16,144 bases of DNA from a virus. The position numbers were made by a program, and so were the translations under genes. The notes beneath the pieces are model-generated. The model worked only from the letters and a program-made list of their open reading frames with translations, made no database searches and had not been told where the DNA came from. Of this stretch, positions 4,205-16,144 are shown in pieces (positions within the stretch are counted from its first letter, which is position 1; the number at the start of each line of letters is the position of its first letter). Location of the stretch: the UHGV virus genome UHGV-0251712; one strand, 5' to 3'.

Positions 4205-6451
4205 TTATGGATTGTTAACCTTCCATCTTTTATCATAGTAATGCAAATATCCCTGAGACGTTAGTGTCATATGGACAATCGCTTGGGATATTTGCGCGTT
4301 CTGAAAATTAACTCTAATAAATACTTGAGTGCCAATTGTTATTTTTGATACAGATATCCCGTCAAGAGTCTTGTCTCCTTGTATTTTATTAACCCAAACA
4401 CCTGACGAAGACAAGGTTGCCTGATCCTTTCCGCTTATACTAAATATAATTTTACCTCCTGTTGCCAGTGAGGTGTTTACTCCATTTTGAGATATTGGAA
4501 TTATTGTAATTTCACCAGCAATGAAAACACCATTTTTGTATTTAGATACCTCACCTTGTTCACAAATTAAAATATCAATACATCTACCCCATGGTACTAG
4601 GATTGTTGCATTTTCAGTTTTTACTTGTGGATATACAGCTGAAACACCTGCAGATTCGAAATTTTTTGCTGATAAAACAACTCCGTCAGATCCATTTCTA
4701 AATCCCATTCCTGTATGATCACCGTATGTCCTTCCATGAGAGATGAATCCTCTTACATACTCTTCGGATACTGCGCTACCAGTGGTTTCCTTCTGAAAGA
4801 TAAATGTTTCACCAAAAGAAAAACCACGACATTGGTATTGGCTCTGATAATTTTCTGAGTTCTTAAAAAAGGAAATGCCTTTATATGCTGTTACATAGCC
4901 AGATCTAAATTGAACGGAAACAGGGGTTGTTTGTTCATCTGGAGGTAACTCCACAAAATGTGTAACATTTTGGCTGTTTGATTCCTGTAACCATACAGAA
5001 ACACCATCTATAATCATGGTTGAAAATCTACTGTTTATTTCTAACTCAGAAAAATCAAGAACATGATCACCTGTAACACCCTCAACTCCAAACCCATCAA
5101 TACTTAAAGACCTGAACTGATAGAATTTATGCGGTAACTCACAACCATCAGCTGCAATATTCATTGCGCTAGTGTACATTAATGGGTAAGGACTTATAAT
5201 TGGTTCATATGTTTCTCTATCTATTGCAGCCCCCCAAAGATACCCAACATTACAATGTCTTGCCCAGTTGGAAGAGAATGTAGTAGATGTGCCAGCCAAA
5301 CCGAAACCATAGATACAATCATATGCTTGGTTGTTTGTAACATTACTGACAAAGCATGATAAGGGAAGTGCAAATTTATAATGTAGAAATATGTTATTTT
5401 TAATATCATATTCACTACCCCCGCCAAAGGTTTGTGTTTGACCAGAAATGGCCAATGGGCTACCTGAATATTCATCGTCAGCGTTGCGAAAACACATATT
5501 CTTTACTTTAAGATTGTGCCCCCAACTTCCCATAACAAAACCACCACTTCCTGATGTATAAACAATACTTTTTTGTGGATTAATCCCATATAGATTTAGA
5601 CTAATCCCTTCCCATCTAAACTGGCTAATGTCAATTTGAGTGTTACCAATATATATAGGCTGGTCTATGAAAACAGGAAGTTTAGTTAGATAAGCTTTAT
5701 TAAGTGCTAATCCATCATTTGTTACACCTGTTAAATCAACGCCCCCCATGCTTGGCGCTCTAGGATACCCTGTGGCCTGAATAGTACTCCAGTCAATATA
5801 TGGAGCATCCATCCACGCTCCAAACATACGTGGTGTTACGTACCCCTTACCTTGAAGATCACGTTTCCAGCGTTTACCACCCACAGTGACAATGACCATG
5901 CCGTTATCATCTGCAGAAGTAGAATCTGTGAAATCGGCCACAAACAGACCACCACCAGTATCACCTGATACTGTCGGCTTCATGCCTGTAGTGTGGAAGT
6001 CGACGAAAATCTTTTGCTGATCTCGCTCAGGCTCAATTGTCCTTAACATTGCTATATCAGGGCATGTCCCGATGTATTTAAGACCGTCTTCCCCTGATAG
6101 AGATACTTTAAGCTGATCAGGATCATATTTAAGAACATTCGGAAAATAGAACTGCTGTGCACCATATGCATCATAAACAGCCATAGAATGGCCTTGCACA
6201 GTTACGAACTTGGCAATCTGTCCGTTATATACCGGATATCCAGCAGCGTTAATGATGATTGGTTGCGAAACAGGAACGCGAGAACCGTCTTCATTCTCCA
6301 CATAAACCTGAATCTGGTTTTCAGGATTTACCGGGTCAGTGTCAATTTTACCGATATAAATTTTGCCATTGGCTACGGCTTTAAAAGAACGAGCCATAGT
6401 GAAGAGTTGCGAAGGCATGCTTACCACAACATTTGCGGTGATATCTGACAT
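4205..6451 (-). CDS. P22-like tailspike protein (gene 9 homologue) with conserved head-binding N-terminal domain and divergent receptor-binding domain
   Basis: From the internal Met, [43 protein letters not shown]...VLKYDPDQ aligns with the P22 tailspike N-terminal domain ([43 protein letters not shown]). A GGAG ribosome-binding site sits 7 nt upstream of the ATG at 6449-6451. The ORF-track start at 6499 is probably an upstream extension. Confidence 0.85.
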
Positions 6452-10657: not shown

Positions 10658-10855
10658 TTAAAACAACGAGCCAAGCAATCCGATACCAGCACCAATGCCA
10701 GCGCCCCAAGGCGTTGATGTTCCCAAAAGGCTGGCAAGACCTGCACCGGCAATCGCACCAGACGTGCCACCGCTAATTGCAGTCTGAAGACTTGATGGTT
10801 TAACCAAAGAGTAGTTGGCTTTGGGGTGACGTGAAGTGCAGCTGCACGACGGCAA
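10658..10855 (-). CDS. Small Gly/Ala-rich ORF, possibly the 3' remnant of an upstream ejection-protein gene (gene 7-like) truncated by a deletion joint
   Basis: 65-aa ORF ending 9 bp before the 443-aa gene. Hydrophobic Gly/Ala-rich C-terminus. Begins at a TTG inside the region occupied on the other strand by the ssb fragment, so its 5' end is unlikely to be native. Confidence 0.3.
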
Positions 10856-11267
10856 CCTGACAATAGCAACGTCAGAACAATGGCGAGATAAAAATACTGG
10901 CGAGCAAAAGGAATTGACTGAATGGCATCGTGTTGCTGTATCCGGGAAACTGGCTGAGGTCGTGGGGCAGTATGTGAAAAAAGGTGATCAGATTTATTTC
11001 GAGGGAATGCTGAGAACCAGAAAGTGGAAAGACCAGTCAGGGCAAGACCGTTACACAACCGAGGTTCATGTCGGAATTAATGGCGTGATGCAAATGCTTG
11101 GCGGCATTGGCGACAGCAAACAACAAGCAGCCAGCAGGCAATCACAGAAGCCACAGCAGCAATCATCACCAGCACAACACAACGAACCTCCGATGGATTT
11201 TGACGACGATATACCCTTTGCACCAGTAACTCTCCCCTTCCCTCGTCACGCTATTCACGCAATTTAA
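10830..11267 (+). pseudogene. ssb: Single-stranded DNA-binding protein gene (ssb), 5'-truncated and with a C-terminal extension beyond the DDDIPF tip
   Basis: Translation [22 protein letters not shown]...[54 protein letters not shown]...[10 protein letters not shown] aligns with E. coli SSB from about residue 30 onward. The N-terminal ~30 residues are absent (in-frame stop at 10827-10829). After DDDIPF there is no stop and the frame continues 15 codons. Confidence 0.75.
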
Positions 11268-12052: not shown

Positions 12053-12742
12053 ATGAGCAAGATTGCCTATCAGGCACTGCGTGAAAAGGCAGAGAAAGCA
12101 ACGTGTGGTGTGTGGTCGCTCGAATATGGAGAGGGCCGATTTGATGGTGATGATGCGCTAATTCATCGTGAAGTTGCTGGATATATTCCCATTTGCAGAA
12201 TTGAAGGAGCGCATCCTGAAAGCGGTTTCGATGAAGATTTCCAAATGGAACAGCAGGCCAATGCTGAATTCATCGCAGCAGCCAGTCCAGCTACCGTGCT
12301 GGCACTACTGGATGAACGGGAAAGAAACCAGCAGTACATCAAACGCCGCGACCAGGAGAACGAAGATATTGCGCTAACGGTAGGGAAGCTGCGTGTTGAT
12401 CTGGAAGCCGCAGAGAAGCGCAACGCAAAATTACAAAGCGAGAATGCATACATCCGCAACAGGTACAAAGAACTGGACCTATTAATCGGGAAAAACATTC
12501 TGGTCATGCAGGCTGCCATTATCGAATGGCAATCTACTGGCGACGCTAAAAGCGGACTGGCATGGATTTATAACACACTGTTTGGCCCAGGCGAATTGCC
12601 GGACGAATCTGAGAAAGATGCTCAGGCCTACTTTAATCGCAAAAATGAACCGATTGACGAAAAGCTTATGGAGCTTCACAAGTGGTTTTGGGAACAAAGT
12701 GAAGCCGAGCGTGTCGCTGGCATTCGCATCAAAGGAGAGTGA
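12053..12742 (+). CDS. Ead/Ea22-like family protein (lambdoid early-left accessory protein)
   Basis: 229 aa with a central coiled-coil-like segment; N-terminus MSKIAYQALREKAEK... resembles proteins annotated Ead/Ea22-like in enterobacterial prophages (recollection, not searched); position in the early-left region. Confidence 0.5.
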   Translation: MSKIAYQALREKAEKATCGVWSLEYGEGRFDGDDALIHREVAGYIPICRIEGAHPESGFDEDFQMEQQANAEFIAAASPATVLALLDERERNQQYIKRRDQENEDIALTVGKLRVDLEAAEKRNAKLQSENAYIRNRYKELDLLIGKNILVMQAAIIEWQSTGDAKSGLAWIYNTLFGPGELPDESEKDAQAYFNRKNEPIDEKLMELHKWFWEQSEAERVAGIRIKGE

Positions 12743-12743
12743 T

Positions 12744-12941
12744 ATGGATAAAAACACCACTGCTTACTGGAATCTGTCACTTGATACCGAATGCCCAAAA
12801 TGCGGTCACAATTTCGATCTGCTTTGTGACGCTGATTTCTGGGAGTTTTCTGGAGCTAAACAGGCATGTGAAGAAATAAAAGGTTACAAAACATGCTGTC
12901 CGGAATGTAACCATGAATTTAAAACAGATTTCATATATTGA
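12744..12941 (+). CDS. Small zinc-ribbon protein
   Basis: 65 aa with CPKCG...CCPEC (two CxxC pairs). ATG overlaps the Ead stop (TGATATG) with an AAAGGAGAG ribosome-binding site upstream. Confidence 0.5.
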   Translation: MDKNTTAYWNLSLDTECPKCGHNFDLLCDADFWEFSGAKQACEEIKGYKTCCPECNHEFKTDFIY

Positions 12942-12951
12942 GGCATAACAA

Positions 12952-13398
12952 ATGACCACTATTACCAAAGAACGTATTGAATTGTTCATTAAAAATCCGC
13001 TTGAAAACGGGCTTACTCGTGGCGAACAAATGGAACTGGCACGAATTGCACTGGCATCACTGGAACGCGAACTGATTCGCCACGAGCATGCCAAATGGTC
13101 TGACTCCACATTTGGCTGCGTTGGCCCCATTGGTCCACTGAAACACCTCTCAAAAGAGACACTGGAAGCCGCAGCCGAACCAGACGATCTTAGCGAGTGG
13201 GCTGATATGCAGTTTCTGTTGTGGGATGCACAGCGCCGTGCTGGCATCAGCGATGCTGAAATTACCGCTGCTATGGAAGATAAATTGAAGATCAACATGG
13301 AGCGCCAGTGGCCTGAGCCAAAAGATGGTGAGCCTCGCTTGCACATTAAAGAACTCGGCAACTCTCCGGTAATTCCGGATGGTTCGGATGATGGTTAA
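12952..13398 (+). CDS. MazG-like nucleotide pyrophosphohydrolase-like protein (DUF550-like)
   Basis: 148 aa; segments HLSKETLEAAAE and DLSEWADMQFLLWDAQRRAG resemble the paired E-rich helices of MazG/HisE-type all-alpha NTP pyrophosphohydrolases. Assignment by motif resemblance only. Confidence 0.45.
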   Translation: MTTITKERIELFIKNPLENGLTRGEQMELARIALASLERELIRHEHAKWSDSTFGCVGPIGPLKHLSKETLEAAAEPDDLSEWADMQFLLWDAQRRAGISDAEITAAMEDKLKINMERQWPEPKDGEPRLHIKELGNSPVIPDGSDDG

Positions 13399-13433
13399 CC
13401 ATTTTTGATGTAAAAACATCCTTCTCTGAGGGC

Positions 13434-13462
13434 TTGCTCCTCAATAAGTTTGGTTTTATAAT
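13434..13462 (+). promoter_or_regulatory. Candidate sigma70 promoter for the NYN gene (TTGCTC - 17 bp - TATAAT)
   Basis: Perfect -10 hexamer TATAAT at 13457-13462 with TTGCTC 17 bp upstream, in the 149-bp gap before the NYN ORF. Sequence-only prediction. Confidence 0.3.
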
Positions 13463-13547
13463 TACGCGCAATGAAGGTGGGCGGTTCGCTACTATACAAG
13501 AGGGGTGTACCCCGCGAACTTAACCCACCACCACTTTCCTCTCTACT

Positions 13548-14195
13548 ATGAATTGCAAATCAATGACCAGAAAATATGCCATCATGATCGATGCTGGTTT
13601 TTTGCGTGCAAAATTAGGCACAAAAGATAAGCCAATCGATGCGGAAGTAATCAAAGTATTTGTAGAAAAACTAACAAAAAGGCATGAACTAGAAGGCATG
13701 ATTTTGCACCGTGTTTATTATTACGATGCAGAGCCGCTTACCGGAATACAGACGCATCCGATTAGTGGAGAGAAAATTGACTTCTCTGAAACAGAAGTTT
13801 CTAAAAGAAATAAAGCCATGCTTGATGAGTTGAAAAGAACTCCTTTTTTTGCAGTAAGACTTGGAGAGACAAACTTTCGAGGATGGAAGGTTGACCCATG
13901 GGCATTAAAGAGCAGTGACTCTAAAACTTCTTCCATTAATGCCTACAATGTTAAGCCTAATGTTCAGCAGAAAGGCGTTGATATGCGTATTGCGTTAGAT
14001 ATGTCATCAATGTCATTAAAAAAACAGGCAGATATATATGCTTTGGTGACTGGTGATTCAGATTTTGTTCCAATTATAAAATTTGCTAGGAAAGAAGGCC
14101 GACAGATTTTTCTATACACACTGGGACATAGTGTCAAGCAGACGATGTATGAACATTCCGATTTGTTAGTGCCAGATACCATGGATAAATTGTGA
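13548..14195 (+). CDS. NYN-domain (PIN-like, LabA/limkain-b1-type) predicted ribonuclease
   Basis: 215 aa with NYN hallmarks: N-terminal YAIMIDAGF, central KGVDMRIALDM, and C-terminal ALVTGDSDFVPIIKFARKEGRQIF (the typical GDxDF...G block). AT-rich relative to flanking phage genes. True start may be the ATG at 13563. Confidence 0.65.
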   Translation: MNCKSMTRKYAIMIDAGFLRAKLGTKDKPIDAEVIKVFVEKLTKRHELEGMILHRVYYYDAEPLTGIQTHPISGEKIDFSETEVSKRNKAMLDELKRTPFFAVRLGETNFRGWKVDPWALKSSDSKTSSINAYNVKPNVQQKGVDMRIALDMSSMSLKKQADIYALVTGDSDFVPIIKFARKEGRQIFLYTLGHSVKQTMYEHSDLLVPDTMDKL

Positions 14196-14374
14196 TTGGA
14201 GCTAGGAATAGGTTAGCCGCGCCTTAATAGATGATCCATTCTGGCAGAAAAAGAACACAAAGAAGTAGCCTAAGTGCCCCCAACTGCATTTACACCCAGG
14301 CCCTCATTGCGGGTCTTTCTATTTACAGAGATGGCTGAGCAGAACGCCAAGAACTGACAACCTGAACGAATACG

Positions 14375-14400
14375 AACCCGCCTAGTGCGGGTTTTCTTTT
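14375..14400 (+). terminator. Rho-independent terminator (stem aacccgc/gcgggtt plus T-run)
   Basis: 7-bp GC-rich stem with 5-nt loop followed by TTCTTTT. Confidence 0.65.
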
Positions 14401-14406
14401 ATCTGA

Positions 14407-14430
14407 ACTCGCTACGGCGAGTTTTGTTTT
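14407..14430 (+). terminator. Second tandem rho-independent terminator (stem actcgc/gcgagt plus T-run)
   Basis: 6-bp stem with 4-nt loop followed by TTTTGTTTT. Confidence 0.55.
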
Positions 14431-14442
14431 ATGGAGATGATT

Positions 14443-14742
14443 ATGGCCTGTTCAACATTCAACCATTTAACGTTACAGAAATACCAGCCAGACCCTGAAG
14501 ATTTATGCTCACTGTGTGGCGGAAATCATGGTAAAGCCGCCATGATCGAATGTAAGGACAAAATCCACATTTGCCTTAATTGCGTTGATGTCCTCGTTGA
14601 TATCAAAAATGAGAGAGAAGATAAAAAGCGTAGCGAGGCTATTCGCGCATTAGATTCATGGATGCGAGATGGGTATAGTGCTGCGCAAATTTATGACTTC
14701 GCAATATCAAAAGGCGAAATACCAGGAGTGCGCATCGAATAA
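14443..14742 (+). CDS. Small zinc-ribbon protein bounded by terminators
   Basis: CSLCGG...C...CLNC cysteine pattern. Start chosen at the ATG at 14443 because GGAG lies 6 nt upstream; the ORF track starts at 14431, which abuts the terminator T-run. Confidence 0.45.
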   Translation: MACSTFNHLTLQKYQPDPEDLCSLCGGNHGKAAMIECKDKIHICLNCVDVLVDIKNEREDKKRSEAIRALDSWMRDGYSAAQIYDFAISKGEIPGVRIE

Positions 14743-14782
14743 GACGTAACCAATATTCGAATTGAAGAACTGAAAGAACACC

Positions 14783-14809
14783 AAGCCGCCTGATGGCGGT
14801 TTCTTTTTG
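14783..14809 (+). terminator. Rho-independent terminator (stem aagccgcc/ggcgguu plus T-run)
   Basis: GC-rich hairpin followed by TTCTTTTT immediately after the zinc-ribbon ORF. Confidence 0.6.
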
Positions 14810-14822
14810 CCTGGAGAATTAA

Positions 14823-14927
14823 GATGACCGATACCAGCCTGATTCCTGAGAAAGAAGTGATGAACAAGCTCGGTGTTTCATCACGTCAGACAATCTGGAA
14901 CTATACCAAACGGCACGGATGGATATA
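14823..14927 (+). pseudogene. AlpA/excisionase-family helix-turn-helix gene, 3'-truncated (34 codons)
   Basis: MTDTSLIPEKEVMNKLGVSSRQTIWNYTKRHG fits the AlpA/Xis-type HTH pattern (L-x-x-x-E-V...G-x-S-R-x-T-I-x). Intact members run about 60-70 aa. Here the frame ends WI-stop inside the 36-bp inverted-repeat copy that starts at 14917. Confidence 0.5.
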
Positions 14928-14952
14928 GGTTACTGGCGAACACATGATTTCA
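14917..14952. repeat. Left copy of perfect 36-bp inverted repeat bracketing the integrase 3' segment
   Basis: ggatggatataggttactggcgaacacatgatttca is exactly the reverse complement of 15154-15189, with mismatches immediately outside both ends. Confidence 0.9.
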
Positions 14953-15140
14953 GAAGAACGCTTGTTACACGTCTGTCCGAGATGAATGTCGAGCCTCATG
15001 TTACTGAGCGAATGCTCGGTCATGAACTTGGCGGGATAATGTCCGTATACAATAAACACGATTGGATAGAGGCTCAGCGCAAAGCGTATGAGCTTCACGC
15101 TGATAAATTGTTCTGGCACATCAGGAGCATTTCTGATTAA
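14919..15140 (+). pseudogene. Detached C-terminal segment of a tyrosine integrase, inverted relative to the rest of the gene
   Basis: MDIGYWRTHDFRRTLVTRLSEMNVEPHVTERMLGHELGGIMSVYNKHDWIEAQRKAYELHADKLFW carries the H-x-x-R and catalytic Tyr region. Its first 11 residues duplicate the last residues of the minus-strand integrase ORF. Confidence 0.8.
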
Positions 15141-15148
15141 CGCCACCG

Positions 15149-16144
15149 TTAAGTGAAATCATGTGTTCGCCAGTAACCTATATCCATCCCTCCCCTTATT
15201 CTATTTACGAATCGGTTGGCTGCAGCGATGCTGATCGGTTTGTTTATGTCTTCTCCAGGGAAAAGAACATCATTGTACGTTGTCATGGCCTTATCGAGGA
15301 AAGGCTTAATTTGTTCGAAGATTGGACGGCGGATAACATTACCCATCTTGCTATGCTCTTTCGGTACGGTCCATACGTTGTCCAGCAGGTCAAATTCTGT
15401 CTTTGTTGCCAGCCTAAGCTCTGAGAGCCTCGCCCCCCACAGCATAAGCATCTGATGAAGGAGCTTATTTGACGTAGACGCACGGCTTCTTTCAATAGCA
15501 AGCCAAATCTTAGCCAGTTCGTGATACGACAGTACCCGATCCCCTACCTCAGCGCGGGAGCCGAAGTCCCTTGGCTGGATGCTCATAATTGCGCAACTAT
15601 CTATCAACTGACGCCGCATGCACCAACTAATTGCTGATCTTAGTTGACTTAGCACCTGCCTTGCTCGGCGTGGATTATCTTTTTCTTCTTCGGTAAGCAG
15701 GTCAACCCATTGCTTAACCGTGATAGAAGATGCCGGACGATTAGGAAAGGCGTCATGCATGCGCTTCATAACCGTTGATCGGTAAAGTGCCTGGGTCTTT
15801 TCTCTGAGAGTTGTAGAGACGTAGTTGTCGAACCAGTAGTCGAGACACTGGGCGACCGTCATGGAGTTCTCCACCTTCTCTTCAAAATAAGTGCGTGGAT
15901 CCGTTCCTGAGAAATAGAGCTTTCGCAAGTCAGCAGTGATCTGTCTGGCATCCTTCAAAGACAGGGATGGGTATCGACCAAGCCCAAGTCGATTAGGCTT
16001 GCCATGCCAGCGATAGCGGTACTGGAACTGGATGACCCCCTTCGGTGAAATTCGTACGCTGAGGCCATCGGCATCAGCCACTTCTTGTGGGCCCGAATAT
16101 GGTTTACCATAAATAGTACGCAGTTTTGTGTCGCTTATAGCCAT
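15149..16144 (-). CDS. P4-type tyrosine integrase, N-terminal 330 codons; truncated before the catalytic Tyr
   Basis: N-terminus has the arm-binding pattern of P4-family integrases (GLSVRISPKGVIQFQYRYRWHGKPNRLGLGRYPSLSLKDAR). ORF ends ...GGMDIGYWRTHDFT-stop at the right copy of the 36-bp repeat. Start codon is the last 3 bases of the window. Confidence 0.8.
   Translation of the reverse strand: MAISDTKLRTIYGKPYSGPQEVADADGLSVRISPKGVIQFQYRYRWHGKPNRLGLGRYPSLSLKDARQITADLRKLYFSGTDPRTYFEEKVENSMTVAQCLDYWFDNYVSTTLREKTQALYRSTVMKRMHDAFPNRPASSITVKQWVDLLTEEEKDNPRRARQVLSQLRSAISWCMRRQLIDSCAIMSIQPRDFGSRAEVGDRVLSYHELAKIWLAIERSRASTSNKLLHQMLMLWGARLSELRLATKTEFDLLDNVWTVPKEHSKMGNVIRRPIFEQIKPFLDKAMTTYNDVLFPGEDINKPISIAAANRFVNRIRGGMDIGYWRTHDFT
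15154..15189. repeat. Right copy of perfect 36-bp inverted repeat
   Basis: Reverse complement identical to 14917-14952. Confidence 0.9.

Follow-up and report, generated by a model that had tools for sequence, protein, structure and literature searches.

The N-domain of ClpX dimerises and docks the substrates lambda O, MuA and FtsZ as well as the adaptors SspB and RssB, and the free zinc-binding domain of ClpX reportedly competes with ClpX for lambda O. A stand-alone phage protein that very probably carries a homologue of this domain is described here from the UHGV virus genome UHGV-0251712, a stretch of 16,144 nucleotides that was analysed as a whole and is called the window below. Its coding sequence (CDS) occupies 14443..14742 on the plus strand, specifies 99 amino acids followed by TAA, belongs to the family of Sf6 gp19, 933W L0063 and phrog_3680, and almost certainly represents a real gene in a conserved swap slot. 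The reading favoured for the locus as a whole, with a probability put at roughly 0.55, is that of an early-left accessory protein with a ClpX-type finger, possibly modulating the protease ClpXP.

Several phage modulators of host proteases are known: lambda CIII is directed against FtsH, RexB concerns the substrates of ClpXP and ClpAP, T4 PinA is directed against Lon, and SPO1 Gp53 works with ClpC. Such small early phage proteins alter host proteolysis for the benefit of the phage, and this is the class to which the window protein may belong. To our knowledge, none of CIII, RexB, PinA and Gp53 copies the protease's own docking domain, and if the proposal made here were true, this would be, as far as we know, the first case in bacteria of a virus mimicking the recognition domain of a protease.

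The closest described position in a genome is the orf55 slot of lambda. The order between ea8.5 and xis in lambda is hairpin, hairpin, GGAGATGAT, orf55, hairpin, xis, and the three hairpins are the predicted terminators t3, t4 and t5 of Bloch et al. 2014, Table 4 (PMC4195576). The flanking hairpins, the Shine-Dalgarno and the position directly upstream of xis are all shared with the locus in the window, whereas Orf55 itself is an unrelated 55-residue alpha/beta protein. From the same region of the lambda genome comes Ea8.5, a homeodomain/zinc-finger hybrid (PDB 2M7A), which, like the protein predicted here, is a small, acidic, zinc-binding accessory and is thought to bind proteins, not DNA (PMC8614690). 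The two proteins nevertheless differ in domain order and fold, the cysteines of Ea8.5 being C-terminal. Homology with Ea8.5 was considered and rejected, as hhalign gave a probability of 4.6% and 2M7A was absent from the PDB sequence matches. B. subtilis CsfB (PDB 5N7Y) offers another comparison, being a small stand-alone, ClpX-N-like, dimeric treble clef that works by protein binding (PMC5890618). No sequence relationship between CsfB and the window protein was detected; the likeness of CsfB to ClpX is considered structural only, whereas the present family shows sequence homology.

The gene and its zinc finger

The open reading frame (ORF) extends over 14431-14742 of the window on the plus strand, and the ATG at 14443 is its likely start codon. 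A Shine-Dalgarno GGAG, read from the sequence at 14433..14436 (+), stands 6 nucleotides before this ATG, and the resulting length of 99 residues (about 11 kDa) agrees with the RefSeq gene call in strain H9Ecoli. Homologues from Klebsiella, Enterobacter, Hafnia and metagenomes, at 23-60% identity, retain the length of the ORF and four cysteines. Since length, the four cysteines and two further motifs are conserved among homologues, the ORF is taken as a real protein-coding gene and not as a chance reading frame. An earlier note, made by a model from the letters alone, had described an ORF of about 100 codons with a CxxC...C...CxxC pattern. The size proved correct at 99 codons, and the cysteine pattern is indeed present, but its middle member (C37) is not a conserved element, being Gly in many homologues.

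The ClpX-type C4 zinc-finger domain spans 14503..14616 (+), residues 21-58. Its predicted zinc ligands are C22 (14506-14508), C25 (14515-14517), C44 (14572-14574) and C47 (14581-14583), all on the plus strand and all invariant in 38 homologues; they form the arrangement CxxC-18-CxxC, a spacing identical to that of the ClpX N-domain (PF06689; PDB 1OVX, 2DS5-2DS8). The homology with ClpX is regarded as solid on three grounds. Firstly, the relatives P0043, P0047, P0048 and P0054, which have the same architecture and the same length, score 28.4-43.3 bits against zf-C4_ClpX, above the cut-off of 27; for one of them, P0048, the alignment with the window protein is full-length, the C-terminal IPGVR(I/V)E included. 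Secondly, genuine ClpX-finger proteins, with fingers single or in tandem, are recovered by the family profile at E ~1e-4 from 1.84 billion representative proteins. Thirdly, an hhalign comparison of the family with E. coli ClpX residues 1-67 gives a probability of 96.8% (E 2.2e-10), with 33% identity over 40 columns, including CS(F/L)CG and IC..CVDL...I..E. Furthermore, 19 of 21 close family members match zf-C4_ClpX at E <=1, the top PDB sequence matches of the window protein are all ClpX, below threshold, and the only NCBIfam matches, sub-threshold as well, are again to ClpX.

In ClpX, lambda O, SspB, RssB and trigger factor are bound by a hydrophobic patch made up of F16 and I46 (PMC7804408). 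In the hhalign alignment these two residues correspond to L24 and I54 of the window protein, so that both hydrophobic positions are kept. Placing the E. coli clade in the ClpX-finger superfamily is new only as annotation, the domain type being already known; the novelty lies at that level because these proteins have no entry in their precomputed Pfam fields.

A structure computed with AlphaFold2 (AF2) from a 38-sequence alignment reached a predicted local distance difference test score (pLDDT) of 82 overall and of 87-93 over the finger. An earlier AF2 model from a 21-sequence alignment had a pLDDT of 69.8 and a poorly modelled finger, and its Foldseek results were noise. The later model places helices at residues 45-75 and 80-88, and its predicted beta-hairpin and helix superpose on 2ds5_A at 2.2 A. 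The top PDB match in Foldseek was ClpX at E 0.42, below statistical significance for a domain of this small size; against the isolated domain 2ds5_A, the TMt was 0.69 when normalised to the domain, the root-mean-square deviation 2.2 A and the identity 34%, which is also short of significance. Against predicted structures of viral proteins, Foldseek gave no significant match, and all that it listed were small zinc fingers and RING domains of a generic kind. In contrast to ClpX, the protein is a stand-alone phage product of 99 residues without an AAA+ module, and it has a longer post-finger helix of about 30 residues and an extra C-terminal module.

This C-terminal helical module covers 14617..14739 (+), residues 59-99, and ends in a conserved tail, GxIPxhRI[DE]. 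In the proteins P0061, P0063 and P0065 the match is confined to profile positions 58-106, with the sequence ...R(S/D)EADKKRDEA...AIAAGKIPHIRID, and their N-terminal regions are unrelated, carry no finger and have no Pfam match. As residues 59-99 are found behind such finger-less N-terminal regions, they constitute a separable module. In the window protein the tail reads IPGVRIE and loosely resembles the ClpX-binding tail of SspB, RPALRVVK.

The protein is acidic, with an isoelectric point (pI) of 5.6 and a net charge of -3.3, while the finger segment is neutral; among 17 family members computed, 16 have a pI of 4.6-6.6 and only P0057 (7.5) lies above 7. This charge favours protein binding over nucleic-acid binding. 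It therefore speaks against a zinc-ribbon regulator of DNA or RNA, a function that could be suspected from the frequent binding of nucleic acids by zinc ribbons and from the recombination module that the gene adjoins. Neither a helix-turn-helix nor any known nucleic-acid-binding family was found in the protein by Pfam, and ClpX's zinc-binding domain is a protein-binding module; a nucleic-acid-binding role is thus judged highly improbable.

Possible action on ClpXP and on other targets

The gene sits in the final slot of the early-left (pL) operon, upstream of the excisionase/integrase module and close to it. In the proposed mechanism it would supply a delayed-early accessory protein acting by protein-protein contact through its ClpX-type docking domain. 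The protein would interfere with ClpXP or redirect it, and might do so as a free docking-domain decoy, by pairing with ClpX's own domain, or by docking via its C-terminal tail. As a result, some protein of the phage or of the host would become more or less stable in the course of lytic growth. A decoy might, for example, shield initiator O or another docking-domain-dependent substrate; alternatively, the protein might block the ClpXP-dependent activation of abortive-infection or toxin-antitoxin systems. Action on ClpXP is put forward tentatively, from the homology of the finger, and is judged less likely than not. The more specific suggestion that a copy of the docking domain, joined to a module with an SspB-like tail, serves as a ClpXP decoy, anti-adaptor or adaptor is a doubtful one.

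A number of points weigh against the favoured reading. The window protein itself scores 15.7 bits against zf-C4_ClpX (PF06689), below the Pfam cut-off of 27, and the E. coli clade no longer has the G-P motif that ClpX fingers have. No Foldseek match is significant, and scores like that of ClpX are reached by many RING, PHD and LIM fingers. The docking surface is only partly conserved, since the second of the paired isoleucines in the ClpX helix (I47 in the numbering of the literature, I48 with the initiator Met) is replaced by a nearly invariant Lys. The resemblance of the tail to SspB spans 5-6 residues and could be due to chance. N-dependent read-through of the upstream terminators, by which the gene would be expressed, is deduced from gene order and position, and no published study of this protein was found in literature searches; the gene is catalogued but uncharacterised. 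Finally, as the precedent of CsfB indicates, a ClpX-like fold need not mean a ClpX-related function.

The main rival explanation starts from this last point and proposes a dimeric zinc protein whose ClpX fold would serve only as a scaffold. It would be aimed elsewhere, for instance at RNA polymerase, a sigma factor or some other regulator of phage or host, and through that target would tune the decision between lysis and lysogeny. CsfB is a dimeric treble clef like the ClpX N-domain, yet it binds sigma factors (PMC5890618). For other small exo-xis proteins, action on RNA polymerase has been demonstrated or suggested, namely for Orf73/TraR and, in a speculative model built on the RNA polymerase inhibitor T7 Gp2, for Orf55 (PMC8614690), with which the present gene often stands in tandem. 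The acidic character of the protein suits protein binding of this kind also, and on the surface only part of the residues agree with those of ClpX. However, the sequence homology is specific to ClpX fingers and not to CsfB or TraR, no Pfam match to zf-dskA_traR was obtained, and the positions of F16 and I46, which bind lambda O and SspB, stay hydrophobic. A target other than ClpXP is considered possible, though on the unlikely side.

The ClpXP reading matters because of the phages concerned. The gene is carried by the clinically important Shiga toxin 2 (Stx2) phages 933W, VT2-Sakai and Min27, and the link to ClpX leads to a concrete question, whether ClpXP-dependent turnover is altered during prophage induction, which bears on phage replication and toxin output. 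Its interest depends on the idea of a ClpXP mimic holding in the Stx phages, which is unproven.

The last cargo slot before xis

The window protein matches phrog_3680 at E 5.3e-69 over its full length (positions 1-99 of 99). Over 14389 to 14813 the window has 97% DNA identity with Sf6 (gene 19), 933W (L0063), VT2-Sakai, Min27, Kapi1 and others, and the protein has 95-99% amino-acid identity to its counterparts in Sf6, 933W, VT2-Sakai and Kapi1, differing from that of 933W in 3 residues; in all the phages of this type that were matched, the annotation is 'hypothetical'. The protein is encoded in 53 of 50,697 phage records (tblastn), and of 5426 complete E. coli genomes, 317 (~6%) carry the CDS. 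Homologues in Klebsiella and Enterobacter have 45-60% protein identity. The family is small, as the profile search of the 1.84 billion representative proteins gave only 35 matches at E <=1e-3. Two longer members, P0039 (257 residues) and P0002 (146 residues), look like fusions or upstream-extended gene calls.

The position of the gene is constant. In every context inspected it lies on the early-left (pL) strand, at most five genes upstream of an excisionase/AlpA-integrase module; it stands directly before xis/int in Sf6 and 933W, and distant homologues in prophages are found within five genes upstream of xis, AlpA or int. The neighbours, in contrast, vary: among 72 viral loci, at least seven unrelated clusters occur upstream and at least seven excisionase-type clusters downstream, the latter including lambda Xis, 933W Xis, the Sf6-type gene and AlpA. 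With varied neighbours on both sides, the gene is understood as a mobile mosaic module that stays in one place, in the final cargo slot ahead of the recombination genes.

The borders of this slot were defined by an alignment of five sequences: the window, H9Ecoli, Sf6, 933W and KTa005. All five share the left border, consisting of the second upstream hairpin and the Shine-Dalgarno (14399-14442), and the right border, which runs from 14743 through the downstream terminator. KTa005 keeps both borders and has a different gene of 55 codons, orf55, between them, and the Shine-Dalgarno stretch GGAGATGAT precedes orf55 in KTa005 just as it does in lambda. The terminator at the t3 position lies at 14374..14404 (+), with its hairpin at 14374-14394, a folding energy of -12.0 kcal/mol (z -3.2) and an 8-bp stem followed by TTTTCTTTTAT. 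Sf6, 933W and lambda have a different hairpin here (AATCCTCGC...GCGGGGATT) with an identical T-run after it. The second upstream terminator, the equivalent of lambda t4, is found at 14405..14431 (+; hairpin 14405-14424; -11.9 kcal/mol, z -4.2), is near-identical in the window, H9Ecoli, Sf6, 933W, KTa005 and lambda, and ends a few bases before the Shine-Dalgarno. Directly 3' of the gene stands the equivalent of lambda t5 at 14783..14808 (+; -13.0 kcal/mol, z -2.9), whose hairpin at 14783-14802 has a T-run; it is common to all five aligned sequences and lambda and lies just upstream of the excisionase/AlpA gene.

Hairpin scan and folding energies thus bear out the two upstream terminators and the one downstream that the earlier note had reported, and its placing of the ORF next to an insert with a gene for an NYN protein and to a broken AlpA/integrase was also accurate, the two lying on either side. 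Its description of the ORF as isolated is true in that hairpins bracket the ORF, but misleading, because lambda, too, has these hairpins on both sides of the slot nearest to xis. Since they flank orf55 there, the terminators are a generic scaffold of the early-left operon and not special to this ORF. Over 13300-16144 terminator-like sites are frequent (9 observed, 2.4 +/- 1.9 in shuffles), and an Rfam scan of 13000-16144 at E <=1 gave no match, so the hairpin cluster is not a known small RNA or riboswitch. A caution follows from the finding that the 'isolating' terminators are generic borders of the cargo slot beside xis: an ORF that stands between terminators in a pL operon should not be read as an independent unit, nor as the partner of an adjacent insert.

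Directly after the stop of the ORF and in frame with it, a remnant of lambda orf55 is found at 14743..14793 (+), comprising the last 16 codons and a TGA. Its translation, DVTNIRIEELKEHQAA*, agrees in every residue with the 16 C-terminal residues of lambda Orf55, and the stretch now serves as the 3' untranslated region. Among 80 IMG/VR loci with the ORF, 20 have a full-length orf55 39 nucleotides downstream and 47 have the remnant only. In the tandem loci (e.g. L025, L030 at 5001-5500, and L072), orf55 follows the ORF with a Shine-Dalgarno of its own, and the two genes may have been a two-gene unit in the ancestral arrangement, from which the type seen in the window would most simply derive by a short deletion. 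The exo-xis survey of Donaldson 2021 mentions at this site of 933W only 'a portion of orf55' near xis (PMC8614690). The idea that the ORF is a mere replacement of orf55 was rejected, because both genes occur in tandem in a quarter of the loci; the ORF is an additional cargo of the slot, not a variant of orf55.

The gene upstream of the slot, at 13548-14195, encodes an NYN protein (Pfam NYN E 1.6e-11) and has a GC content of 37.7%. The earlier note had suggested that the ORF might be its partner, and a partnership with this NYN/PIN-like nuclease, as a toxin-antitoxin or defence pair, could be imagined from the adjacency of the two genes on the same strand in the window and in 4 complete E. coli genomes. 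Weak PADLOC matches of the NYN protein to the 'NYN' and 'HEC-09' models suggest that it could be defence-related. The co-occurrence counts refute the partnership, by the yardstick that the note itself had set. The NYN gene is present, at >=99% identity, in only 7 of the 5426 complete E. coli genomes, against 317 with the ORF; merely 4 of these 317 carry both, and the other three NYN genomes have orf55 in the same slot, between the same borders. An NYN homologue occurs in 0 of the 80 viral loci with the ORF, and no NYN Pfam match was seen near distant homologues in the contexts inspected. In addition, two or three terminators separate the two genes, and similarity to other phages begins at 14389, directly after the NYN insert.

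The insert itself (13400-14389) brings a weak fourth terminator-like hairpin of its own at 14298-14316 (+), together with the variant t3. This t3 variant, different in its stem sequence, accompanies the NYN insert and runs on into the shared T-run, which places a junction of modules inside a terminator.

Expression and the prophage remnant

A scan of both strands of 13300-16144 with a simple consensus, which can miss weak or activator-dependent sites, detected no sigma-70-like promoter, where 5.3 were expected by chance. Because no promoter was found and t4 ends a few bases before the Shine-Dalgarno, transcription would have to enter from upstream through two terminators. In lambda-like phages, polymerase modified by N passes terminators from pL onwards. 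In complete phages the gene would therefore be transcribed only by N-antiterminated read-through of t3 and t4 from pL, after infection or induction.

The same observations bear on whether the locus is a moron, that is, an autonomous promoter-gene-terminator cassette active in lysogens as an anti-defence or exclusion factor. It is true that the cassette moves whole between unrelated phages and that a strong terminator closes it, and the GC content of the ORF (42%) is below that of the window (45.5%). The promoter scan argues against such autonomy, and with only a few bases between t4 and the Shine-Dalgarno, a promoter further upstream would first meet two terminators; PADLOC, moreover, gave no match for the ORF. 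A moron is thus improbable. The earlier note had also offered a small regulator or an anti-defence protein, roles that the ORF may conceivably have.

The window holds an apparent prophage remnant of about 13 kb, lying, by comparison with H9Ecoli, between dacD (1162-2334) and the sbcB side. At a deletion junction near 10803-10853, ejection-protein genes of the P22/Sf6 type (minus strand, to ~10802) abut a 5'-truncated ssb at 10836-11267 (+). With the ejection genes joined to the truncated ssb, pL, N and the immunity region are absent from the window, and head, lysis and replication genes are also missing at the deletion. As a remnant without pL or N in the window, this copy of the gene, though intact, is probably silent.

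Downstream of the slot, the recombination module has been rearranged. An inverted repeat of 44 nucleotides (14909-14952 / 15154-15197, 93% complementary) flanks the inverted 3' end of the integrase gene, the inverted segment at 14919-15140 (+) encoding the last ~70 integrase residues. The integrase body lies at 15149-16144 (-) and ends ...GYWRTHDFT*, and the AlpA-like gene, which starts at 14824, breaks off at the left repeat after ~32 codons. H9Ecoli has the intact version, in which alpA (+) and int (-) overlap convergently.

Two genes further upstream were also recorded. An Ead/Ea22-like protein (12053-12742) matches the PADLOC DpdH model PDLC02890 with residues 118-214 at E 1.2e-36, an unexpected link between an Ea22-type protein of the exo-xis region and a model for a component of the Dpd system. 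Overlapping the end of this gene in another frame, a second Cys-rich ORF at 12582-12941 encodes 119 residues with CPKCGH...CCPEC, and matches phrog_4173 at E 1e-28 as well as, weakly, several zinc-ribbon families of Pfam.

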